In this document: positions 8,006 through 19,350 of the stretch, one piece after another
How the letters are laid out: every line of letters begins with the position of its first letter
Numbering within the stretch: position 1 is the first letter of the stretch
Assembly: GCA_021650915.1 (NCBI GenBank)
Contig: CP091279.1
Coordinates: 2,970,001-3,002,000, forward strand
Origin: Candidatus Brocadia sp.
GTDB taxonomy: Bacteria; Planctomycetota; Brocadiia; Brocadiales; Brocadiaceae
DNA: 32,000 nt
Direction of reading: 5' to 3'
Made by a program: the position numbers and the translations under genes
Notes under the pieces: model-generated
What the model was told of the DNA's origin: nothing
Database searches by the model: none
What the model saw: the letters and a program-made list of their open reading frames with translations, nothing else

Positions 8006-8761
8006 ATGCTTCGCTGTTCATGCAGAACAATAGTGAATACCCTGGCGTTTGTTGCGGGTATTGCGTTTCTCAGTTTGCTGTTCGTTCCAGGAAAAGGTGC
8101 TGGGGCAGAAAAGGAAGAACACGGCGTTGAAAATGTTAATAAGCTCAAGTATGCCGACCCCATTAAGGACATCCATCTCTATTTATGTGCTTTTCATATA
8201 GCCAAGGATAACCCGAAATTTGAGATTGAGGCCCATCATTATTGTTCCATGCGGAATCTCAGTGTTAAGGGTAGCGATATCCACCAGTGTGTTATATATG
8301 ACTCCAGGGAAGCGCCCGCAAGGCTCCTTGGTATCGAATACATCATCAGCAACGAGGCCTATCAAACGCTTCCTGCCGAGGAAAAGAAGTATTGGCATCC
8401 CCATGCGTATGAGATCATATCCGGACAACTCATCGTGCCTGATTTAGCTGACATGGGCGATAAGGCCCTTGGAGGCTTTTTAACCAGTTGGGGCAAGACG
8501 TTCCATACCTGGCCCGATCCAACTACGGAGATTCCGATGGGTGAACCCCTCCTCATGTGGTCCGCCGGCGCCGATGGGCAGATCAGTAAAGGGATGATAG
8601 ACAAACGCGATAAGCAGTTCGGTATTTCTTCCGATGAACTTCGGGAACGGAGGAAGAGCTATGGATACCAGGTACCAAAGGTGGCTGTGCCAAAGTCAAT
8701 TGATGAGATTGGCCGGCAATGGACGAGTAAGGGGTCAGATAAGCCGGAGAAATTAAAGTAA
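8006..8761 (+). CDS. Secreted DUF1264 (OBAP-like) domain protein
   Basis: A strong SD (AAGGAGG) lies 7 nt upstream. It has a signal-peptide-like N-terminus (LAFVAGIAFLSLLFVPGKGAGA). The core HLYLCAFHIAKDNP..EAHHYCS...HQCVIYDS..ARLLGIEYIIS...YWHPHAYEI.SGQLIVP...GKTFHTWP...GEPLLMWS matches my memory of DUF1264/oil-body-associated-protein family conservation. Confidence 0.7.
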   Translation: MLRCSCRTIVNTLAFVAGIAFLSLLFVPGKGAGAEKEEHGVENVNKLKYADPIKDIHLYLCAFHIAKDNPKFEIEAHHYCSMRNLSVKGSDIHQCVIYDSREAPARLLGIEYIISNEAYQTLPAEEKKYWHPHAYEIISGQLIVPDLADMGDKALGGFLTSWGKTFHTWPDPTTEIPMGEPLLMWSAGADGQISKGMIDKRDKQFGISSDELRERRKSYGYQVPKVAVPKSIDEIGRQWTSKGSDKPEKLK

Positions 8762-8796: not shown

Positions 8797-9615
8797 ATGA
8801 GGATACCAGGGGAAGAGGCGAATCTGTTTTACAAGTTAATATGGGGGCTGCAATTTTACGTCAATCAACAGCACCAAATCTTGCCAAACATCAAATCAGC
8901 TAATGAATATGCGGAACTGCCGATGTCAGAAAAACTTGAAGTGCGTGATGCACTGTGGAAAAACCCGAACCTGATTGACGTCTATGTAGAAAAGAACCCT
9001 GACAGTTTATCAACTCAGGAACTGGATATCGTCAGCAAGTGGAAACGATTTGTCGCCGGAGGATTTCAGATTTTCCGTTACTTAAAGAACTACACGATCT
9101 TTATCAATGAAAATTCACAGGTATATGGTGTATTGGGATTATACGATAATCTGGAAGACCTGTTTCCCGGAAGGCCTCTGCCAATGATGGTTGCGGCTGT
9201 ACTTTTGCCGTTCAAAGGGAAGATTGTGTATGATGGGGTGCTGAAGGGATACAACATTTCTTTTGGAGGCAGTATTCGGTCCGGTTTAAATGAGAAGTAC
9301 ATGGCAGCCAAACAGAACGATCGTATTATTACTACCCTGGAACCGGAGGCTGCGCCACCGATACAAGCCAGGCATCAACAGAAGCCCGGCAAAGACTGGA
9401 AGCCAGTGGTAGAGGAGATCGTGCGAGCAAGTGAAAAGATGCGGGGAAGTTCTCCTGTCCAGAATGCTGCTTTTGCCCTGCTACGGGACAGTGCAAGAAC
9501 AGCACAATTGGTAGTGCAGCAACCGGATGATTTGGAAGAGATTTGGCGTCTGAAAGAACAGGTGCAAAAGGCATTGAATCAGCTACAAAGAGTTCTGGAG
9601 CGCGCCGAACAATAA
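8797..9615 (+). CDS. Hypothetical protein (272 aa), no recognisable catalytic motif
   Basis: It has a good SD (AAGGAG) 8 nt upstream and lies 35 nt after the DUF1264 stop. Coding-like composition holds throughout. The C-terminal third (roughly the last 90 aa) is predicted helical and charged. I saw no Walker, nuclease or HTH motif. Confidence 0.6.
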   Translation: MRIPGEEANLFYKLIWGLQFYVNQQHQILPNIKSANEYAELPMSEKLEVRDALWKNPNLIDVYVEKNPDSLSTQELDIVSKWKRFVAGGFQIFRYLKNYTIFINENSQVYGVLGLYDNLEDLFPGRPLPMMVAAVLLPFKGKIVYDGVLKGYNISFGGSIRSGLNEKYMAAKQNDRIITTLEPEAAPPIQARHQQKPGKDWKPVVEEIVRASEKMRGSSPVQNAAFALLRDSARTAQLVVQQPDDLEEIWRLKEQVQKALNQLQRVLERAEQ

Positions 9616-9693: not shown

Positions 9694-10815
9694 ATGAGTG
9701 AGTATCAGTATTATGAATTTCGGGCAATTGACCGTCCCTTAACAGAAGCTCAGAAATCAAAGATTTCAGCGCTTTCCAGCCGGGCGCATGTCACCTCTCA
9801 CACGGCCTCGTTTGTTTACAACTACGGAGATTTTCGGGGAAATCCAGAACAACTCATGAGCGACTATTTTGATGCCATGGTGTATGTGAGCGATTGGGGT
9901 TCAAGGCGTTTAATGTTTCGTATCCCTCTATCCCTGATTGACACGAAAAAACTTGGACGGTATTGTATTTCAGAAGAAATCAATGCAAGAGAGACAAAAC
10001 AGGGCGTAGTTTTAGACATGAACTTTCATGATGAGGAACTGGCAGACTGGACCGAAGGCGAAGGGTGGTTAGACGAACTTGTTGAAATGAGAGCGGAACT
10101 GATTCGGGGAGATTCTCGGGTTCTCTATCTGGCATGGCTGAAGGCTGCCGAAAATGCGTTGAGAGCAGAAGATATTGATGACGATACCCTGGAACCTCCT
10201 GTCCCACCGGGATTAAATCAACTCTCTGGTGCACAAAATGTCTTCGTCAGGTTTTTAGAAATTGATGAAGCAATGCTTGTGGTAGCGGCCCAAAAGAGCG
10301 AGGAGCAAAAAGAGGATCATCTGCAACTCGAAAATTGGGTAGAAAAATTATCCATCGAAGAACAACATGAGTTTCTCAGACGCTTAAGTCGGGGAGAGCC
10401 TAATCTATCAGTACTCATGAATAGGCGTCTTCATGAGTTAGCGAATAAGACGCAATGTTCTGCGGACGGAGGAGGCATAGGGCAAAGAACGATTGCCGGG
10501 TTGATTCAGGCCGCAGAGGAATGGCGAAGCCGTAAACAAGAAGACGAGCGCCGCAAAGAGGAACTTGCACGAAAACGAAGGCTGGAGGAGTTCGCAGTGA
10601 AAGAAAACGATGCCTGGCAGCAGGTTGAGATCCTGATCAACGAGAAAAAGCCCAAGTCGTATGATAGCGCCATTGGCCTGCTCAAGGAACTCCGGGAACT
10701 TGCGGAATACCAGGGAAGACTGGAAGGATTTAAAAAGCGCGTTGCAGAAATTCAACAGACGTATTCGAACCGGCCGGCGTTACGAGACCGGATACTTCAT
10801 GCCAGTTTGATTTGA
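9694..10815 (+). CDS. Hypothetical protein (373 aa) with a conserved-looking N-terminal domain and a charged coiled-coil C-terminus
   Basis: The N-terminus is MSEYQYYEFRAIDRPLTEAQKSKISALSSRAHVTSHTASFVYNYGDFRGNP. I recall similar N-termini in uncharacterised bacterial proteins but cannot name a family. The C-terminus is Lys/Arg/Glu-rich (RSRKQEDERRKEELARKRRLEEFAVKEND). No enzymatic motif was recognised. Confidence 0.6.
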   Translation: MSEYQYYEFRAIDRPLTEAQKSKISALSSRAHVTSHTASFVYNYGDFRGNPEQLMSDYFDAMVYVSDWGSRRLMFRIPLSLIDTKKLGRYCISEEINARETKQGVVLDMNFHDEELADWTEGEGWLDELVEMRAELIRGDSRVLYLAWLKAAENALRAEDIDDDTLEPPVPPGLNQLSGAQNVFVRFLEIDEAMLVVAAQKSEEQKEDHLQLENWVEKLSIEEQHEFLRRLSRGEPNLSVLMNRRLHELANKTQCSADGGGIGQRTIAGLIQAAEEWRSRKQEDERRKEELARKRRLEEFAVKENDAWQQVEILINEKKPKSYDSAIGLLKELRELAEYQGRLEGFKKRVAEIQQTYSNRPALRDRILHASLI

Positions 10816-11186: not shown

Positions 11187-11405
11187 TAGCGCAGCACAGC
11201 CGCAACCAAATTTCCTTTATGAAAGCGGGGAGATTGCTTCGGAAAAGGCCCTCGCAATGACAGCGACCATGCACTTTGATGGCACACTGCACGTTGTCAT
11301 TGCGAGTGAAGCGAAGCAATCTTTCACTCATAAAAAACGGCACCTCCTGAAAGAGGTTTGTGAAAAAACTTACAGAAAAAAGAAGTTTTTATGAAGTAAT
11401 ACTAT
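11187..11405 (+). repeat. Modular hairpin repeat, copy A (219 bp), immediately upstream of hsdM
   Basis: It is near-identical to 18890-19109: by eye, about 6 substitutions plus one 1-bp indel. It contains a nested inverted repeat: AGATTGCTTCG (11231-11241) and CTCGCAATGAC (11251-11261) pair with GTCATTGCGAG (11296-11306) and CGAAGCAATCT (11312-11322). Confidence 0.9.
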
Positions 11406-11469
11406 CGTGAAGATGGCTATTTTGTAACACGGAGTGGCAGGAGCAGGAGAGAGTAAACCTGGAGAAGAT

Positions 11470-13437
11470 ATGGATTTAGCACAGCACAATATGATCGTAA
11501 ATTTTATTTGGAGTATTGCAGATGACTGTCTGCGCGATGTTTACGTACGTGGCAAATATCGCGATGTAATTCTTCCCATGACGGTAATCCGCAGAATTGA
11601 CGCCTTGCTTGAACCTGCCAAACAGGCTGTTCTAAAGATGAAGGAACAACTTGATGCCGCAAAGGTCACCAACCAGCATCCGGCGCTTTGCCAGGCGGCA
11701 GGGCAGGCTTTTTACAATACAAGTCCCTTTGTCCTGCGTGACTTAAAATCCCGTAGCTCACAGCAAAAGCTGAAAGCCGACTTTGAATCCTATCTCGATG
11801 GTTTCTCTCCGAATGTCCAGGAGATTCTGGAAAAGTTTAAGTTCAGGAATCAGATCCCCACCATGATTGAATCGGATATTCTCGGATTGGTTATAGAGAA
11901 ATTCACCAACACGGAAATCAACCTGAGCCCTAACCCGGCGCTTGATGTCAATGGCAATGTTCGCCTCCCTGCGCTGGATAACCATTCTATGGGGATGATT
12001 TTTGAAGAGCTGATCCGCCGTTTCAACGAAGAAAACAACGAAGAGGCGGGAGAACATTTTACCCCGCGCGATGTAGTCAAGCTGATGGCAAAGCTCATAT
12101 TTTTGCCGGTTGCCGATAAAATTGAGTCAGGCACCTATCTGGTGTATGACGGCGCTTGCGGAACCGGTGGTATGCTGACCGTGGCGGAAGATACGCTCTT
12201 GCAGCTTGCCAAAGAACACGGAAAAGAAGTTGCGATTCACCTTTACGGGCAGGAATCTCAGCCTGAAACCTACGCCATTCTCAAGGCAGACCTTTTATTG
12301 AAAGGCGAAGGCGCTGAAGCCGAAAACATGAAGTTCGGCTCAACGCTCTCCGCCGATGGCCATTCGTCAAGGGAATTTGACTTTATGCTCTCCAATCCAC
12401 CCTACGGCAAAAGCTGGAAGACCGACCAGGAACGCATGGGCGGCAAAGGGGAAATAAAAGACCATCGATTTGTCATCAACTATAGCGGTGATCCCGAATA
12501 CAAGATGATCACCCGTTCGAGCGACGGGCAGATGTTGTTCCTTGTAAACAAGCTGTCCAAAATGAAAGGCAATACTGCCCTTGGAAGCCGTATCGCGGAG
12601 GTTCATAATGGTTCTTCTTTATTCACCGGAGATGCCGGACAGGGGGAAAGCAATATCCGCCGCTGGATTATTGAAAACGACTGGCTGGAAGCGATCGTTG
12701 CCCTGCCGGAAAACATGTTCTACAACACCGGTATTGCCACCTATATCTGGCTTTTGTCTAACCGGAAAAGTTTAGAGCGAAAAGGCAAGGTTCAACTCAT
12801 TGACGCCAGCGGCTGGTTTGTGCCGCTTCGCAAAAACCTCGGCAAGAAAAACTGCGAGTTTTCCGAAGAACAGATACGGCAGATTGCCGACTTGATTGTG
12901 AATCCCAGGGAAACCGAGCAGTCCAAAATCTTCCCTAATGAGACCTTTGGCTATCACAAAATTACGGTTGAACGCCCTTTGAAGCTGAAGGATATTGACC
13001 CTGAGAAAGCCTACTTACCAAAAGAGATCAAGGCTTTTGTGGCAGAAGGAAAGGCAGATGAAAACGGCATTCCGGCAATCAGGAAAATCCACAAATCAGG
13101 CAGGGCCGATCCTCTGCACGGCCTGTTTGCGCGGACTATTGGTGGTAAAAAATGCGTGGTAGAGTATGAGCCGGATACCAACCTTCGAGATACGGAACAG
13201 GTTCCTTTATTGGAAGATGGAGGCATAGAAGCCTTTTTCAAGCGAGAAGTGCTGCCCTATGTGCCAGACGCATGGATTGACGGGAACAAAACCCAGATTG
13301 GCTATGAAGTTTCCTTTACCCGGTACTTTTACAAACCAGTGCAGATGCGGACGCTTGATGAAATCATGGCGGATATTCGTGCTATTGAAAAAGAGACGGA
13401 TGGACTGTTAAATGAGATTGTAGGGGATGGAAAATGA
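11470..13437 (+). CDS. hsdM: Type I restriction-modification system, DNA methyltransferase subunit M
   Basis: The N-terminal HsdM domain is [41 protein letters not shown]. The SAM motif is [11 protein letters not shown] and the catalytic motif is [13 protein letters not shown] 11470 has GGAGA 5 nt upstream; the ORF is also open from GTG 11434. Confidence 0.92.
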
Positions 13438-13916
13438 ATCCGCGGATAACGCAGATGGACGCAGATAAGAAAGATTCAGAGACCTACTTAATCATTGGCG
13501 CGGCAATGGCTGTTCACCGTGAATTAGGCAACGGTTTTTTAGAGGCTGTTTATCAAGAAGCTTTAGAAAAGGAGTTTTCCAGGCAAGGGATTTCGTATGT
13601 TCGGGAACAAGAGCTTAAGATATGTTATCGTGGTCAAGAGCTGAAGACATGCTATAAGGCGGATTTTGTTTGTTTTGGCAATATAATCGTTGAACTGAAA
13701 GCCCTGCAGCAATTATCCGGCAATGAAGAATCACAAATTATCAATTATTTAAAGGCCTCCGGCTTAAACAAGGGACTTTTGCTTAATTTTGGAACCAGGC
13801 AGTTGCAATATAAAAGATTTGTCTTTAATCTGCGAGAATCTGCGTCATCTGCGGATGGAGGAAAAGGCATGAGTCCGCAGATGACGCAGATTCTCGCAGA
13901 TAAAAGAACAAAATAG
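13434..13916 (+). CDS. GxxExxY protein (PD-(D/E)xK nuclease fold, PDDEXK_3/TIGR04256-type), copy 1
   Basis: It has the GFLEAVY motif (GxxExxY) and a nuclease-like D...ELK ([16 protein letters not shown]). Its start overlaps the hsdM stop (ATGA). The ORF reads through its own 3' inverted terminus and the adjacent palindrome ([29 protein letters not shown]), so the last 20 aa or so may not be native. Confidence 0.85.
13828..13901. repeat. Perfect 28-bp inverted repeat (palindrome) with an 18-nt spacer
   Basis: ATCTGCGAGAATCTGCGTCATCTGCGGA (13828-13855) is the exact reverse complement of TCCGCAGATGACGCAGATTCTCGCAGAT (13874-13901). The left arm is the 3' terminus of GxxExxY copy 1. The right arm resembles the 5' terminus of copy 2. 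Confidence 0.95.
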
Positions 13917-13954
13917 AATTGTTTTAAAGACGCTCATTTGCGCAATCCGCGGAT
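13874..13954 (+). repeat. Gene-less mini derivative of the GxxExxY cassette (5'-terminus-like and 3'-terminus-like sequences about 25 bp apart)
   Basis: The 5' part ATGAGTCCGCAGATGACGCAGATTCTCGCAGATAAAAG parallels the copy 2 start ATGCATCCGCAGATGACGCAGAGGGACGCAGAGAGAAG. The 3' part GCGCAATCCGCGGATAAAGG parallels the copy 2 end GTGCAATCTGCGGATAAAGA. It lies 14 nt upstream of the hsdS ATG, the same spacing as copy 2 to hsdR. Confidence 0.6.
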
Positions 13955-13968
13955 AAAGGTAGTGAACA

Positions 13969-15327
13969 ATGAATTTGAAACCATACCCAGAATATAAAGA
14001 CTCCGGTGTTGCGTGGCTGGGGGATGTGCCGAGGCATTGGGCGGTGCATCCGTTGAAACGATATGCAAAAAATATAATCAATAATGTTATATCGAAAAAC
14101 AGTGAGGAACTTTATATTGCATTAGAACATATTGAAGGTTGGACTGGTAGATTTAAAAAAAACAGAGAGGCAAAATTCACAGGGCAGGTAAAAAGATTCT
14201 CTGAAACTGATGTCCTTTTGGGAAAATTACGCCCATATTTGGCGAAAGTAGCTTTTCCAAAAGAAAAAGGCGTATGTGTAGGAGAAATACTTTCTATTAG
14301 GCCAAATGTAAACTATTTACTGGGGACATTTTTAGAAAAATCATTTTTGTCTTTTCCTTTTATAGGGATAGTAAATGGTTCAACTTATGGTTCTAAAATG
14401 CCACGGACAGAATGGGATTTTATCGGAAATCTTGGATTCCCAATCATCCCTCTCCCCGAACAAAACCAAATTGCCCGTTTCCTCGATTACAAAACCGCCC
14501 AGATTGCCCGCTTCATCAAGGCCAAAAAGCGGATGATTGAACTCTTGAAAGAGCAGAAGCAGGTGATCATCAACGATGCAGTAACGGGAAAGATTGATGT
14601 CGCCACTGGCAAACCTTATCCGAAATACAAAGACTCCGGCATGGAATGGCTGGGGCAGGTGCCGGAGGGATGGGAGGTGTTGCCATTAAGGTGGCACATA
14701 TTGATTGGCTCTGGAGAGTTCCGTTCTGGAAATTTAATTAGAACTGAAAAATCATCTGATTACCAGTATCCAGTTATCGGTGGAAACGGTGTATTGGGTT
14801 ATACTAATTCAAATAACTCAGAAGATAATTTGATTATAATTGGTAGAGTTGGCGCTCTTTGTGGAAATGTTCATTATGTAAAAGAATCTGCTTGGATTAC
14901 AGATAATGCATTACGAATTGATGATATTAGGAAATTCCAACCTGAATTTCTGGCTTTACAATTAAAAGCAATGAACCTTAATAAACTATCAAATGCGAAT
15001 GCACAGCCGCTTATTACTGGTGGTATTATTAAGTCGCAAAAAGTTGTCTTTCCACCTCTTAATGAACAACTTGAAATTCTGAAATACATCGAACACAAAA
15101 CCGCCGCCATTGGCAAAACCATCTCCCGCACTGAGCGGGAAATCGCTCTGATGCAGGAATACCGCACACGGCTCATCTCCGATGTGGTAACGGGAAAAAT
15201 AGATGTGCGAGGTATTGAAATACCTGACATTGCCGACATTGATGATACACTTGACGAAGCAATGGAAGAAACCGAAGGTAAAGATGAATGGGAAACAGAG
15301 GAGGCGGAAGAATGCATCCGCAGATGA
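13969..15327 (+). CDS. hsdS: Type I restriction-modification system, specificity subunit S (two target-recognition domains)
   Basis: It has a duplicated architecture. Each half starts with PYP.YKDSG..WLG.VP..W (aa 5-25 and about 216-236). Each half ends with the conserved helical spacer: PLPEQNQIARFLDYKTAQIARFIKAKKRMIELLKEQKQVIINDAVTGKIDV and PPLNEQLEILKYIEHKTAAIGKTISRTEREIALMQEYRTRLISDVVTGKIDV. The TRD segments are visibly more AT-rich. Confidence 0.92.
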   Translation: MNLKPYPEYKDSGVAWLGDVPRHWAVHPLKRYAKNIINNVISKNSEELYIALEHIEGWTGRFKKNREAKFTGQVKRFSETDVLLGKLRPYLAKVAFPKEKGVCVGEILSIRPNVNYLLGTFLEKSFLSFPFIGIVNGSTYGSKMPRTEWDFIGNLGFPIIPLPEQNQIARFLDYKTAQIARFIKAKKRMIELLKEQKQVIINDAVTGKIDVATGKPYPKYKDSGMEWLGQVPEGWEVLPLRWHILIGSGEFRSGNLIRTEKSSDYQYPVIGGNGVLGYTNSNNSEDNLIIIGRVGALCGNVHYVKESAWITDNALRIDDIRKFQPEFLALQLKAMNLNKLSNANAQPLITGGIIKSQKVVFPPLNEQLEILKYIEHKTAAIGKTISRTEREIALMQEYRTRLISDVVTGKIDVRGIEIPDIADIDDTLDEAMEETEGKDEWETEEAEECIRR

Positions 15328-15752
15328 CGCAGAGGGACGCAGAGAGAAGAGATCCTCAGACATACACGATTATTGGTGCGGCAATGCAGGTTCATAAAGA
15401 ACTGGGACACGGTTTCTTGGAGGCTGTGTATCAGGAAGCTTTAGAAAGAGAGTTTTCTAAACAGGGAATTCCTTATGTTCGGGAACAGGAGCTTAAGATA
15501 TTTTATTGTGGTCAAGAATTGAAGACATTTTACAAAGCGGATTTTGTTTGCTTTAGTAGTATAATCGTTGAATTGAAAGCTGTACAAAATATTACAGGAG
15601 TAGACGAGGCTCAGGTTATCAACTACCTGAAAGCATCTAATCTGAATAAAGCACTTTTGATTAATTTTGGTAGCTTGAGCTTACAGTACAAACGACTGGT
15701 CTTTAATCTGCGTGAATCTGTGCAATCTGCGGATAAAGAGAGGGAAGCATGA
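15312..15752 (+). CDS. GxxExxY protein (PD-(D/E)xK nuclease fold), copy 2
   Basis: It is a paralogue of 13434..13916 ([57 protein letters not shown]). ATG 15312 aligns with the copy 1 start (MHPQMTQRDAERRD versus [14 protein letters not shown]); the ORF is open from 15288. The start lies inside the last 16 nt of hsdS, and the stop overlaps the hsdR start (ATGA). Confidence 0.85.
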   Translation: MHPQMTQRDAERRDPQTYTIIGAAMQVHKELGHGFLEAVYQEALEREFSKQGIPYVREQELKIFYCGQELKTFYKADFVCFSSIIVELKAVQNITGVDEAQVINYLKASNLNKALLINFGSLSLQYKRLVFNLRESVQSADKEREA

Positions 15753-18709
15753 ATCCAACTGACATGTCTGAAAAAGGTTTAGAAACCCTCATAGTCAATT
15801 CTCTAATAAACGATGCAGGCTATGTGCCGGGCGATCCCAAAGACTACGACCGCGAACATGCCGTTGACCTTGCCAAACTGATGGAGTTTGCAAAGGTAAC
15901 CCAGCCCAAGGCCTTTGAGGCGCTTTCGCTGGGTGAGGACACACCCAAACGCACCAAGTTTCTGCACCGCTTGCAGGGTGAGATTGCCAGACGGGGAGTG
16001 ATTGATGTGTTAAGGCTTGGCGTTAACGACGGACATATAAAGCTGGAACTGTTTTACGGAACGCCTTCTGAGCAAAACCCAAAGGCGCAGGAGCTGTACA
16101 AACAGAACATTTTCAGCGTTACGCGCCAGTTGCAATACAGTATGGATAATACGAAGCTTGCCCTGGATATGGCGATTTTTATTAACGGCCTGCCGGTAAT
16201 CACTTTTGAGTTGAAAAACAAAATCACCAAGCAGACCGTGGAAGATGCGGTTCAGCAGTACAAGTGCGATCGGGATTCCCGCGAGCTTTTGTTTCAATTC
16301 GGGCGCTGTGCGGTGCACTTTGCCGTTGACGACCATGAAGTGCGGATGTGCACCCATCTGAAAGACAAGGCGTCATGGTTCCTGCCGTTCAACAAAGGCT
16401 ATAACGACGGCGCCGGAAATCCTCCAAACCCCAACGGCATTGCCACTGATTATCTCTGGAAAGAGACGCTGCAGAAAGACAGCCTTACGAATATCCTGGA
16501 AAACTACGCCCAAATCGTAGAAAAGAAAGACGAGAAAACCGGCAGGAAAAAACATGAACAGATATTCCCACGTTACCACCAGCTTGATGTGGTGCGAAAA
16601 CTCCTTGCTTCGGCACCAGTTGATGGAGTCGGGAAGCGGTACCTTATTCAGCATTCTGCCGGAAGCGGCAAGAGTAATTCCATAAGCTGGCTTGCGCATC
16701 AGTTTGTAGGACTGGAAAAAGACGGCAAAGCCCTTTTTGACACGATTATCGTCGTTACCGACCGCCGGGTGCTGGACAAGCAGCTTCGCGATAACATCAA
16801 ACGCTTTGCGCAGGTCTCATCCATTGTTGGAGCGGTTACCGAAGGGTCTCAACAGCTTCGCTCGTTTTTGGAGCAGGGCAAGAAGGTGATCATTACCACA
16901 GTGCAGAAATTCCCCTTTGTGCTGGATCAGATCGGCGACCATCATCGCAACAGTAAATTTGCCATTATTATCGACGAAGCACACTCCAGCCAGGGCGGGC
17001 GCACCGCATCAAAAATGAATATGGTGCTGGCGGAATCTACTGCTCAATACGGCGAACCTGAACCGGAAGAGGATATTGAAGATGCTATCAACAAGATTAT
17101 GACCTCCCGCAAGATGCTGTCCAACGCGAGCTATTTTGCCTTCACCGCTACGCCCAAAAACAAGACTCTGGAAATATTCGGCGAACCCTATTCTGAAGGT
17201 GATACGGTCAAACACCGTCCGTTCCATGCCTACACCATGAAACAGGCAATTCAGGAAGGCTTTATTCTTGATGTTTTACAGAACTATACACCGGTTGACA
17301 GTTATTACCGTTTGATAAAATCAGTTGAAAATGATCCTGAGTTTGATACCAGGCGCGCCAGGAAGAAACTCCGCCGCTATGTAGAATCTCACAATTACGC
17401 TATTCGCCAGAAGGCGGAAATCATGATTGACCATTTCCATGATGAGGTGATCGCCCGTCATAAAATCGGCGGTAATGCCCGCGCCATGGTGGTATGCAGT
17501 GGCATTGAACGGGCAATTCAGTATTACCATGCTTTTTGCGCTTATCTGACAGAACGGAAATCGCCGTATAAGGCAATCGTGGCCTTTTCCGGTGAATACG
17601 ATTACGGCGGCAAGCATCTCACCGAATCGAATTTAAACGGTTTCCCAGGCAATACGATTCCGGACACCTTTCAGCATGACCCCTATCGGTTTCTTATTGT
17701 TGCTGATAAATTTCAGACAGGTTACGACGAGCCGCTCTTGCATACCATGTACGTGGATAAACAACTGTCGGGAATTAAGGCTGTACAGACCTTGTCGCGC
17801 CTGAACCGGGCGCATCCCCTCAAAACGGATACCTTCATATTGGATTTCATGAATGATGCTGAAGTCATTCAATATGCCTTTTCCGATTACTACAGGACGA
17901 CCATACTGAGCAATGAAACAAATCCCAACAAACTCCATGATTTAAAGTCTGCACTTGATGGTTATCAGGTGTACACGCAGTTACAAATTAACGACGTTGT
18001 ATCGCTCTTTCTGAAGGGTGAAGCGAGAGAAAAAATTGATCCGGTTCTCGATGCGTGTGTGGCTAATTACCATGCTGAACTTGATGAAGATGGGCAAGTG
18101 GATTTTAAGGGCAAGGCAAAGGCGTTTGTAAGAATGTATAACTTCCTCGCATCCATTCTCCCCTATGCCAATGCTCAATGGGAAAGGCTTTCGATATTCC
18201 TCAACTTTTTGATCCCAAAACTGCCTGCTCCAAAAGAAGATGATTTGTCCAAAGGGATCCTTGAAACGATAGATATGGACAGTTATCGCGTAGAGATACA
18301 AGCTGTCCATAAAATCCAGTTGGTCGATGACAATGCAGAGATTGATCCCATTTTGATTGGGAGCGGCGGTAAAAAAGCAGAACCGGAACTGGACCATTTG
18401 AGCAACATTATCAAGGCATTTAACGAACAATTTGGAAACATAGACTGGAAAGACGCCGATAAAATCAGAAAAATTATAGCCGAAGAACTTCCGGGAAAGG
18501 TTTCTGCAGATAAGGCCTATCAAAACGCCATGAATCAAAATGATAAGCAAAATGCAAGAATCGAACACGACAAGGCCCTTGAGCGGGTCATTGTAGAGAT
18601 GCTCACCGACCACACGGAGCTGTTCAAACAATTTATGGATAATCAGAGTTTCAAGAAATGGCTGGCAGATACAATATTCAATGAAACCTATAAAAAGAAG
18701 TTGGCCTGA
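15749..18709 (+). CDS. hsdR: Type I restriction endonuclease subunit R (helicase/nuclease)
   Basis: The N-terminal PD-(D/E)xK motif is LDMAIFINGLPVITFELKN. SF2 helicase motifs are QHSAGSGKSNS (I), IIIDEAHSSQ (II, DEAH), FAFTATP (III) and QTLSRLNR (VI). Its length is 986 aa. Confidence 0.93.
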   Translation: MNPTDMSEKGLETLIVNSLINDAGYVPGDPKDYDREHAVDLAKLMEFAKVTQPKAFEALSLGEDTPKRTKFLHRLQGEIARRGVIDVLRLGVNDGHIKLELFYGTPSEQNPKAQELYKQNIFSVTRQLQYSMDNTKLALDMAIFINGLPVITFELKNKITKQTVEDAVQQYKCDRDSRELLFQFGRCAVHFAVDDHEVRMCTHLKDKASWFLPFNKGYNDGAGNPPNPNGIATDYLWKETLQKDSLTNILENYAQIVEKKDEKTGRKKHEQIFPRYHQLDVVRKLLASAPVDGVGKRYLIQHSAGSGKSNSISWLAHQFVGLEKDGKALFDTIIVVTDRRVLDKQLRDNIKRFAQVSSIVGAVTEGSQQLRSFLEQGKKVIITTVQKFPFVLDQIGDHHRNSKFAIIIDEAHSSQGGRTASKMNMVLAESTAQYGEPEPEEDIEDAINKIMTSRKMLSNASYFAFTATPKNKTLEIFGEPYSEGDTVKHRPFHAYTMKQAIQEGFILDVLQNYTPVDSYYRLIKSVENDPEFDTRRARKKLRRYVESHNYAIRQKAEIMIDHFHDEVIARHKIGGNARAMVVCSGIERAIQYYHAFCAYLTERKSPYKAIVAFSGEYDYGGKHLTESNLNGFPGNTIPDTFQHDPYRFLIVADKFQTGYDEPLLHTMYVDKQLSGIKAVQTLSRLNRAHPLKTDTFILDFMNDAEVIQYAFSDYYRTTILSNETNPNKLHDLKSALDGYQVYTQLQINDVVSLFLKGEAREKIDPVLDACVANYHAELDEDGQVDFKGKAKAFVRMYNFLASILPYANAQWERLSIFLNFLIPKLPAPKEDDLSKGILETIDMDSYRVEIQAVHKIQLVDDNAEIDPILIGSGGKKAEPELDHLSNIIKAFNEQFGNIDWKDADKIRKIIAEELPGKVSADKAYQNAMNQNDKQNARIEHDKALERVIVEMLTDHTELFKQFMDNQSFKKWLADTIFNETYKKKLA

Positions 18710-18889
18710 TAGGAAAACGGGTTTGACAAGGAGCTCCACCGGAAGAGGATTCCGCTATCGGCTCACCCTTGCCAGCGAACTTGGGCGGTGAACTATTGAT
18801 TGATACCTGTTCCCTTTAGAAATCTCCGCTCGTGCATCGTATAAGCTTACTAATTCATGCTCATAAAAAAGACGGCCACCCATTATTCA

Positions 18890-19109
18890 TAGCGCGGCAA
18901 AGCCGCAACCAAATTTCCTTTATGAAAGCGGGGAGATTGCTTCGGAAAAGGCCCCTCGCAATGACAGCGACCATGCACTTTGATGGCACACTGCACGTTG
19001 TCATTGCGAGTGAAGCGAAGCAATCTTTCACTCATAAGAAACGGCACCTCCTGAAAGAGGTTTGTGAAAAAACTTACAAAAAAAAGAAGTTTTTATACAG
19101 TAATACTAT
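18890..19109 (+). repeat. Modular hairpin repeat, copy B (220 bp), downstream of hsdR
   Basis: It is a near-identical direct repeat of 11187-11405, with the same nested hairpin (AGATTGCTTCG / CTCGCAATGAC ... GTCATTGCGAG / CGAAGCAATCT). Confidence 0.9.
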
Positions 19110-19334
19110 AGCGCAGCAAGGCCGCAACCAATTCACCGTTGTGAAAGCGGGAGATTGCTTCGGACAAGACCCTCGCAATGACACTGGCTATGCCTTTGAT
19201 GACATACGGTACGTTGTCATTGCGAGCAAAGCGAAGCAATCCTTCCCTCGCAAACAAACGGTACCTTCTGATAAGGGATAAACAGGGTTGCGAAAAAACT
19301 TACAAAAAAAGAAGTTTTTACACAGTAATATTAT
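19109..19334 (+). repeat. Modular hairpin repeat, copy C (diverged, in tandem with copy B), ending 17 nt before the radical SAM start
   Basis: It has the same module order as copies A and B. All four stem arms are conserved exactly, while the loops and flanks diverge (apical loop ACTGGCTATGCCTTTGATGACATACGGTACGTT versus AGCGACCATGCACTTTGATGGCACACTGCACGTT). Confidence 0.85.
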
Positions 19335-19350
19335 AAAGAATCTTCGGGAT

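Follow-up and report, generated by a model that had tools for sequence, protein, structure and literature searches.

A perfect palindrome in a type I restriction-modification operon of Candidatus Brocadia as the probable junction of two members of a GxxExxY-associated inverted-repeat family

The DNA analysed here is a stretch of 32,000 nucleotides of Candidatus Brocadia sp. (assembly GCA_021650915.1, contig CP091279.1, positions 2,970,001 to 3,002,000 of the forward strand), referred to below as the window. It carries a type I restriction-modification (R-M) operon with two genes for GxxExxY proteins and a perfect palindrome immediately upstream of hsdS. All genes of the operon lie on the forward strand: the methylase gene hsdM (11470..13437; Pfam HsdM_N and N6_Mtase), the specificity gene hsdS (13969..15327; Methylase_S) and hsdR (15749..18709; HSDR_N, ResIII and SWI2_SNF2). 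The start of hsdM is fixed by a 655-aa gene call in independent contigs, and its native C-terminus is common to many homologues. Its stop codon TGA overlaps the ATG of the first GxxExxY gene, copy 1 (13434..13916, PF13366 and TIGR04256), forming an ATGA at 13434-13437. Terminal inverted repeats (TIRs) bound copy 1, the 5' TIR being ATCCGCGGATAACGCAGATGGACGCAGATAA (13438..13468, + strand) with three heptamer units and the 3' TIR being ATCTGCGAGAATCTGCGTCATCTGCGGAT (13828..13856, - strand). Each TIR is approximately 30 nt long and holds three CGCAGAT heptamers with starts at intervals of 9 and 10 nt (consensus TCCGCAGATnnCGCAGATnnnCGCAGAT). The window contains five matches to the pattern CGCAGATNNNCGCAGAT with up to two mismatches, 0.17 being expected, and all five are at the termini of cassettes. 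The PD-(D/E)XK domain of copy 1 comprises residues 16-130, near the last of which it ends, while the open reading frame (ORF) of 160 aa runs on through its own 3' TIR, the junction behind it and the next 5' TIR to a TAG at 13914-13916; the original prediction that the palindrome artificially extends this ORF is thus borne out.

Copy 1 is followed by a gene-less mini cassette of 88 nt (13869-13956), which consists of a full 5' TIR (13874..13903, + strand), a loop of 31 nt (13904..13934, + strand) that is orthologous by alignment in three Brocadia genomes, and a 3' TIR shortened to two units, CATTTGCGCA + ATCCGCGGAT (13935..13954, - strand). The orthologous mini of the third Brocadia genome (L127) retains an intact three-unit 3' terminus, relative to which one 10-nt unit has been lost in the window. 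With its last base at 13954, the diverged 3' terminus, GCGCAATCCGCGGAT, leaves a spacing of 14 nt to the hsdS ATG at 13969; the spacing from copy 2 to the hsdR ATG is likewise 14 nt, as had been proposed, and that from copy 1 to the ATG at 13869 is 12 nt. The earlier proposal of a second cassette without its ORF, resembling a miniature inverted-repeat transposable element (MITE), agrees with this layout. The remnant start that had been likened to the first 14 or so codons of copy 2 is real, with 31 of 42 nt matching when read from the ATG at 13869, but copy 1 is matched equally well. The second full cassette, GxxExxY copy 2 (15312..15752, + strand, PF13366), has its 5' TIR at 15316-15345, its 3' TIR at 15706-15734, a Shine-Dalgarno (SD)-like tail at 15735-15748 and an ATGA at 15749-15752 that is shared with hsdR. 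At its upstream end, ATGA became ATGC at 15312-15315, so that the hsdS stop codon (15325-15327) now lies inside the 5' TIR of copy 2; the related Brocadiaceae genome B188 retains the ATGA at this position. Filled sites in the window therefore share one arrangement, an ATGA followed by terminus, contents, terminus, a purine-rich tail of 12-14 nt and a further ATGA. Two of these units, copy 1 and the 88-nt mini, stand in tandem between hsdM and hsdS, with an ATGA at 13434, 13869 and 13969 marking their limits. The layout of TIR end, tail and ATGA at 13857-13873 recurs at 13955-13972, where the SD-like tail AAAGGTAGTGAACA and ATGA lead into hsdS (+ strand), and at 15735-15752.

The palindrome is situated where these two tandem units meet. 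A repeat finder placed its arms at 13822-13855 and 13874-13907, each of 34 nt, 97% complementary and 18 nt apart. Within them 13828-13855 and 13874-13901 are exact reverse complements, giving the perfect core of 28 bp at the coordinates originally reported; in random sequence of 32 kb, about 2e-11 perfect 28-bp inverted repeats with a loop of no more than 50 nt would be expected. The left arm of the core falls within the 3' TIR of copy 1 and the right arm within the 5' TIR of the mini. Because the junction holds two ATGA-delimited units, the 18-nt loop can be read as the last base of the 3' TIR followed by GGAGGAAAAGGCATGAG (13857..13873, + strand), that is, the SD-like tail of the first unit, the ATGA heading the second (13869-13872) and one further base. 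The extreme stability foreseen for the stem was reproduced by folding of 13815-13915, for which a free energy of -63.8 kcal/mol was predicted as RNA against -21.8 ± 3.1 kcal/mol for shuffled sequences (z -13.5) and -41.7 kcal/mol as DNA (z -13.8). In a predicted fold of 561 nt (13425-13985), the inner hairpin is enclosed by a further pairing, between the 5' terminus of copy 1 (13438-13457) and the 3' terminus of the mini (13935-13954), so that copy 1 and the mini could behave as one composite element.

Palindromes can arise in assembly when an inverted repeat is collapsed or joined chimerically, and the contigs that cover this region are short, with their ends in flanking repeats. Assembly support, which the original prediction had singled out as needing a check, was found in five concordant independent assemblies of Ca. 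Brocadia fulgida. The hsdS protein is present on 19 contigs, and five of the six that were fetched, which derive from different sequencing runs and include the NCBI genome, match 13821-13960 exactly; one of these, LAQJ01000260.1 (GCA_000987375.1), matches the window at 100% identity along its full length. In the sixth, L124 (99.7% identical), natural variation of TC>CA at 13845-13846 breaks two stem pairs. Imperfect orthologous versions occur in two other genomes, in one of them on a 685-kb contig, and the contig breaks lie at 11363 and 18930, inside flanking repeats of 225 bp, rather than at the palindrome. With the exact sequence in five independent assemblies, the chance that the palindrome is an artefact can be neglected.

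These related sequences also bear on the origin of the perfect stem. In L127 the second spacer of the left arm is CA and the third spacer of the right arm is GGG, with a predicted fold of -45.6 kcal/mol; in B188 the corresponding spacers are CA and GGA (-46.8 kcal/mol), in the variant strain L124 they are CA and TCT (-56.3 kcal/mol), and in the window and four other assemblies TC and TCT (-63.8 kcal/mol). TCT is the exact complement of AGA in the left arm, and TC the exact complement of GA in the right arm. There have hence been two block changes, of three and two adjacent bases, each of which makes one arm the complement of the other, and predicted stability rises with each step. Judged from these alignments, the perfect stem is recent and confined to the B. 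fulgida lineage, the ancestral arms having been imperfect. The comparison points to a templated correction of a quasipalindrome, either by template switching or by conversion within the palindrome, and since the blocks comprise three and two adjacent bases with no intermediates, templated conversion would fit better than stepwise compensation. That quasipalindromes are corrected by template switching is well established as a mechanism of mutation (PMC7202029). As in that system, an imperfect inverted repeat would have been perfected by multi-base changes copied from the opposite arm; the difference is that the process is deduced here from natural lineages rather than observed in a reporter assay.

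A stem of this stability located between hsdM/GxxExxY and hsdS/hsdR might instead be a selected RNA element of the hsd transcript, acting as an RNase III site, a block to 3'-exonucleases or an attenuator governing how much methylase is made relative to the specificity and restriction subunits, with the arm changes being compensatory. Both derived arm changes increase pairing, the outer TIRs of copy 1 and the mini add a nested structure in the 561-nt fold, and influences on the stability and processing of mRNA are known for REP and Correia elements. In intervening sequence (IVS)-like RNA elements, such as the IVS of 23S rRNA, inverted repeats at the flanks pair in the transcript and RNase III cleaves them; for the present repeats the folds predict the pairing. 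Against such a role, the stem is perfect in one lineage only, the co-occurring strain L124 and two related species having two to five or more mismatches, and the three- and two-base blocks without intermediates suit templated conversion better. In 51 gene-less hairpins of this type found in other genomes (described below), the complementarity of spacers is 0.57 against 0.46 for shuffled partners, and the stem is perfect in only three; it is perfect in none of ten comparable junctions elsewhere. Since arms elsewhere pair mainly through their heptamers, with weak spacer complementarity, the heptamers rather than the stem are the conserved feature. An intrinsic terminator was considered and rejected, as the stem is followed by AUAAAAGAACAAAAUA, which has no U-tract, and a terminator scan called none at 13822-13907. 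An Rfam E-value search of 13300-15900 returned no family, its hits being unspecific hairpins of plant miRNA models that fell far short of the gathering scores. A selected RNA element is accordingly unlikely, and conservation lends no support to the suggestion that the hairpin uncouples methylase from restriction expression. The hairpin is predicted to form in the transcript, where an RNA-level effect is possible as a side effect. The palindrome itself most likely arose as a by-product of mutation where two cassettes meet rather than as a selected signal.

Comparison with related operons showed the same junctions filled, reduced or empty. In Brocadiaceae B188 (L129), whose hsdM and hsdR are 97% and 96% identical to those of the window, a gene-less cassette of approximately 105 nt with orthologous termini occupies exactly the site of copy 2. 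In L222 (hsdM 87% identical) hsdM and hsdS overlap by a bare ATGA with nothing between them, and the N-terminus of hsdS, MKLKPYLEYKDSGVPWLG, is homologous to MNLKPYPEYKDSGVAWLG in the window. In L224 (hsdM 83% identical) it is hsdS and hsdR that overlap by a bare ATGA, the hsdR N-terminus MNTDMSEKGLE being homologous to MNPTDMSEKGLE of the window. An ATGA stands at both ends of the units in the window and a single ATGA at the empty sites, the ATGA being at the same time a functional stop/start overlap. In the finished genome of Desulfarculus baarsii DSM 2075 (CP002085.1), a full cassette stands behind an hsdM in a type I operon whose later junctions hold two gene-less minis. The GxxExxY protein encoded there shares 73% identity with copy 1, but the hsdM only 33% with that of the window; the similarity of the cassettes is independent of the host operon. 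The D. baarsii operon (L135; 2831196-2841651) lies directly downstream of genes for phage capsid, connector and head-closure proteins, holds two hsdM-like genes and a Bro-N gene, and is probably prophage-borne.

Other passengers were observed at the same hsd junctions: GmrSD_N in L224, a 261-aa ORF without a Pfam match in L222, a 66-aa fragment in L127, SLFN_AlbA_2 in L138 and, in a region without a gene call after hsdM in L226, a DUF1016-like gene whose family was judged by eye from its translation. In the relatives of this operon, the ATGA junctions appear to be general insertion slots. A universal SD-like tail with ATGA at the 3' end of the cassette was rejected, for it holds only in the nearest clade and was present in 9 of 78 metagenome cassettes. 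A tail of GGQQ type is encoded by 20 of the 120 nearest GxxExxY homologues, in D. baarsii by GGAGGTCAGCAATGA.

B. fulgida and B188 share 96-97% identity in hsdM and hsdR but only 38% in hsdS (13969-15327 compared with L129:6525-7973), and the specificity subunit appears to have been swapped, or to have diverged rapidly, inside an otherwise conserved operon. With inverted repeats adjoining hsdS, this divergence could be taken to mean that the repeats are recombination sites of a phase-variable type I system, an hsdS shufflon. Such systems are poorly matched by the locus, which has a single hsdS and neither partial copies of it nor, within the operon, a gene for a recombinase; the repeats stand outside hsdS, on either side of the GxxExxY genes, and they occur overwhelmingly away from R-M loci. 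A shufflon is very improbable.

The distribution of the repeat was determined with the terminus pattern TCCGCRGATNNCNCAGANNNNCGCAGA, in which 19 bases are specific, over contigs of one genome per species amounting to 596 Gb. At least 120 genome stretches matched, where approximately two would be expected by chance, and these came from over a dozen phyla; the 120 stretches analysed include Verrucomicrobiota, Planctomycetota, Nitrospirota, Acidobacteriota, Chloroflexota, Armatimonadota, cyanobacteria, Spirochaetes, Bacteroidota, Lentisphaerae and alpha-, beta-, gamma- and deltaproteobacteria. A relaxed rescan of the same 120 stretches, to which the following counts refer, yielded 237 termini. 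These form 51 '+ -' pairs less than 150 nt apart, the gene-less hairpins, seven '+ -' pairs 300-600 nt apart, and 11 '- +' junctions less than 60 nt apart like that of the window. Where a 300-600-nt pair encloses coding cargo, this is GxxExxY in every case among the matches listed, once as a frameshifted pseudogene; other cargo was discounted, as pairs more than 1 kb apart merely bracket ordinary host genes. Solo pairs outside the window span 70-200 nt and show no consistent target-site duplication. Long open frames contain 25% of solo hairpins compared with 79% of random positions. One full cassette and several minis are arrayed together in each of L053 (a Planctomycetota metagenome-assembled genome, MAG), L047 (Ca. 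Thiosymbion) and L012 (a Verrucomicrobia MAG). Further gene-less terminus pairs, for which the original prediction had suggested a search of the rest of the genome, are common in other genomes, with these 51 pairs and the two in the D. baarsii operon, and they support its structural reading. It had not recognised the termini as a repeat family spanning many phyla. Genes of hsd type are present in only two of the 120 stretches and in none of the six with GxxExxY, so the repeats are not a feature of R-M systems as such.

Other flavours of tandem heptamer, CACAGAG (aaccacagagacacagag) and CGCAAAG (cacgcaaaggcgcaaag), adjoin or nest in CGCAGAT elements (L078, L089, L032, L008, L074 at 39-161, L204, L041, L107 and L085). 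In L074 a CACAGAG hairpin is nested in a CGCAGAT hairpin, and in L204 an inverted repeat of CGCAAAG type surrounds a whole GxxExxY cassette. Six same-strand TIRs with a period of 65 nt at L055:3826-4195 resemble a CRISPR array, an interpretation that was rejected since the 'spacers' are identical and indicate tandem duplication; L055 is a long-read contig of Flavobacteriales, and a run of about 40 C beside the array looks like a sequencing artefact. The sequence TTATCCGCA differs by one mismatch from TTATCCACA, the DnaA box. This reading was set aside because it explains neither the triple heptamers nor their association with a gene. The palindrome region had no blastn match in plasmids and phages, a result to which the low-complexity filter may have contributed.

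Both GxxExxY genes of the window encode confident members of their family. Copy 1 matches PF13366 at 5.9e-39 (133.5 bits, cut-off 22) and TIGR04256 at 7.6e-42 (142.4 bits, cut-off 35), and copy 2 exceeds both curated cut-offs with PF13366 at 1.8e-39 (135.2 bits) and TIGR04256 at 143.8 bits. The PD-(D/E)XK catalytic residues E37, D77, E87 and K89 are invariant in 61 homologues. An AlphaFold2 model has a mean pLDDT of 87.5, with a core above 90 and the TIR-encoded residues 1-11 and 134-142 below 50; its best match among PDB structures is Cas4 SSO0001 (4ic1; E 9e-5, TM 0.55), followed by lambda exonuclease, AdnAB and MGME1. By the alignment of homologues the catalytic residues of a PD-(D/E)XK nuclease are intact, and so, in the model, is its predicted fold. 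A search of PDB sequences with GxxExxY gave no match, nor did PADLOC or PHROGs. The family is very large, with at least 8,000 proteins at E ≤1e-10 in a word-indexed search and 13,724 representatives at E ≤1e-3 in a library clustered at 50%. A 2012 survey of PD-(D/E)XK proteins gives the function of PF13366 as unknown (PMC3424549). In the literature searched, neither a description of the TIR repeat sequence nor a function for GxxExxY, PDDEXK_3, PF13366 or TIGR04256 was found, and mentions of GxxExxY did not concern its function; the repeat-element family is apparently undescribed there. The public records of two copy 1 homologues (P0001 and P0003) read 'NADH:ubiquinone oxidoreductase (subunit 5) / MnhA', apparently a propagated misannotation.

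The association between this gene and the TIRs extends well beyond Brocadia. Among the 120 nearest homologues, the translated 5' TIR (PQ[IM]xQ) is recognisable in 97 and the translated 3' TIR (NLRES-like) in 112; 71 start exactly with M[NSKH]PQ[IM], that is, with the start codon abutting the repeat, and in 11 the ORF extends through extra TIRs as that of copy 1 does. Distant representatives show the motif read in other frames (ADYADFAD, NLRNLRI) or a CACAGAT variant (SVESVQSV). Of 80 metagenome GxxExxY loci, 73 had enough flanking sequence to be judged, and canonical TIRs in the expected orientation were present on both sides in 35 and on one side in 21 (56/73 in total); most of the other 17 proved, on inspection, to contain heptamer variants (CACAGAT, CGCCGAT, CACTAAT) or a reversed arrangement. 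Between GxxExxY genes, third codon positions are 35% identical and TIR cores 90-93%, the latter figure being subject to ascertainment as the termini had been preselected at no more than four mismatches. This comparison, together with the predicted disorder of the TIR-encoded residues, indicates that the constraint on the termini acts on the DNA and not on the protein.

Such an association could also arise if GxxExxY were not selfish but served type I R-M or defence operons as an accessory gene of the host, with the heptamers serving as operators or binding sites and the gene-less hairpins elsewhere being regulatory. The gene does follow hsdM directly in three unrelated operons (the window, D. 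baarsii and L138), the same junctions hold other accessory genes in relatives, and three direct heptamers at helical spacing resemble protein-binding sites. Such a role is improbable, because hsd genes are nearly absent from the TIR stretches, because there is no PADLOC or PHROG match, and because the elements have the traits of mobile repeats rather than of operators: arrays of minis, nesting (L074, L204), truncated and frameshifted copies (L091) and variation in unit number.

By analogy, the closest functional counterpart of the family would be the REP/REPIN repeats and their RAYT genes described by Bertels and Rainey (PMC3116915, PMC3337134). In both, short and mostly intergenic palindromic repeats form inverted doublets that fold into hairpins and occur in arrays of alternating orientation, a single protein-coding gene is flanked by inverted repeats, and gene-less copies far outnumber gene-bearing ones. 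The dispersed, extragenic inverted doublets that typify REPINs are present here in the 51 doublets and their low frequency in long frames. The families differ in that the gene here encodes a 125-aa GxxExxY nuclease, whereas RAYT is a Y1 HUH transposase; there is no GTAG head, the arms beginning (A)TCCGCAGAT; the arm comprises three heptamers where a REP has one small hairpin; the same repeat sequence recurs in many phyla, REPs being restricted to particular lineages; and the GxxExxY gene is multi-copy, with two in this operon. A direct association with RAYT was rejected. B188 has a 114-aa Y1_Tnp gene of IS200/RAYT-like type approximately 2.5 kb upstream of hsdM (L129:1181-1525), and a tblastn search with it over 221 loci (1.23 Mb) matched only its own locus; having no counterpart in the other 220 loci, it is not linked to the repeats.

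MITEs such as the Correia/NEMIS elements of Neisseria are similar in being TIR-bounded sequences of 70-150 bp without coding capacity that are related to longer TIR-bounded elements, and in often being co-transcribed with their neighbours, so that the TIRs form RNA hairpins. The 88-nt mini at 13869-13956 has the TIRs, small size and lack of coding capacity of a MITE. The present family differs in having no known insertion sequence or transposase partner, no clear target-site duplication and TIRs that are internally repetitive, and there is no relation in sequence. No transposase parent with the same TIRs was found, as in the loci compared these flank only GxxExxY, a family that is not known to have transposase activity and is listed as of unknown function (PMC3424549). 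Homing endonuclease genes, including that of the PD-(D/E)XK enzyme I-Ssp6803I, likewise consist of a small nuclease gene standing alone between conserved operon genes, better conserved across hosts than its flanks and present or absent at the same junction. Unlike the cassette described here, they lack TIRs and leave no gene-less TIR derivatives, and the cassette for its part has no known cleavage site. Cas4/RecB nucleases (SSO0001, lambda exonuclease) share with GxxExxY the predicted fold and the catalytic motif E...D...ExK, but GxxExxY is some 60-80 residues shorter and has neither Fe-S cluster cysteines nor a cas or rec context. The cassette boundaries lack the R''/R' cores (RYYYAAC ... GTTRRRY) of an integron cassette with attC, the boundaries being ATGA|ATCCGC... 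and ...GCGGAT|AAAG; unlike a single integron array, the TIR elements are dispersed over many loci. A Pfam scan of the upstream ORF at 9694-10815 and of three downstream ORFs (for 8006-8761 and 8797-9615, NCBIfam only) detected no integrase, no dedicated search for intI having been made.

Taken together, these data show the anatomy and distribution of the cassettes and their turnover, with the palindrome lying where two neighbouring members of one repeat family meet tail to head. They make it somewhat more probable than not that this family is a selfish one, MITE- or REPIN-like, and that the arms were perfected by templated correction. Full members of the family carry one gene, for a 125-aa GxxExxY PD-(D/E)XK nuclease with a predicted fold like that of Cas4/RecB, and short members none. 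In this operon family the elements sit exactly at the ATGA stop/start overlaps of translationally coupled hsd genes, and as each unit brings a purine-rich SD-like tail and a new ATGA, the neighbouring genes stay translatable. Two tandem units at the hsdM/hsdS junction place a 3' TIR 18 nt from a 5' TIR, and the originally imperfect arms so juxtaposed would have been perfected in the B. fulgida lineage by two templated multi-nucleotide corrections. The three heptamers of each arm, at roughly helical spacing, are candidate sites for a protein that reads both ends, and the GxxExxY nuclease may be the protein that acts on these heptamer arrays. In a wider reading, which we hold more tentatively and put at slightly under even chances, GxxExxY and the triple-heptamer TIRs would represent an undescribed class of selfish element in many phyla, a PD-(D/E)XK counterpart of REPIN-RAYT, whose autonomous form is a promoterless cassette of approximately 0.45 kb and whose gene-less hairpins are intergenic. 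In this clade at least, the cassette would insert at ATGA overlaps carrying its own SD-like tail and ATGA, with both neighbours being translated.

Several observations weigh against a mobile, selfish family. The link between nuclease and repeats is associative, and 113 of the 120 TIR stretches have no GxxExxY gene within the 8 kb examined. The loci compared showed neither a transposition event nor an excision product, and no target-site duplication that was unambiguous. ATGA coupling at the 3' end is present in only 9 of the 78 metagenome cassettes, and ATGA at both ends may reflect selection for translational coupling instead of a mechanistic duplication. The slot may simply tolerate insertions, given that other passenger genes (GmrSD, DUF1016-like and ORFs of unknown type) occupy the same hsd junctions in relatives. 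No PD-(D/E)XK protein of this size is known to serve by itself as a transposase. The polarity of the arm changes rests on four sequences.

The palindrome itself is probably a harmless by-product, and it is the element family exposed by it that is of interest. If the nuclease mobilises the repeats, a role would be gained for a very large family (more than 13,000 clusters) that is annotated only as 'GxxExxY protein', and a new enzymatic basis for MITE- and REPIN-like repeats. It would also explain the odd, disordered terminal peptides of these proteins (MNPQITQMDAD..., ...NLRESAQSAD) and the frequent over-extension of GxxExxY ORFs. At a practical level, gene callers carry ORFs through the TIR repeats, and these, together with unrelated repeats that flank the operon, break short-read assemblies. 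The locus further provides a clean natural example of a quasipalindrome perfected by templated mutation.

The unrelated repeats are direct copies of approximately 225 bp, 95-97% identical, which bracket the hsd operon at 11187-11412 and 18890-19116, with a third copy in tandem at 19109-19335. They have no relation to the TIRs and contain a hairpin of their own, GTCATTGCGAG...GAAGCAATC. Independent short-read assemblies break exactly within them, L121 for example spanning 11363-18930. The hsd operon may thus be an island flanked by a dispersed Brocadia repeat.

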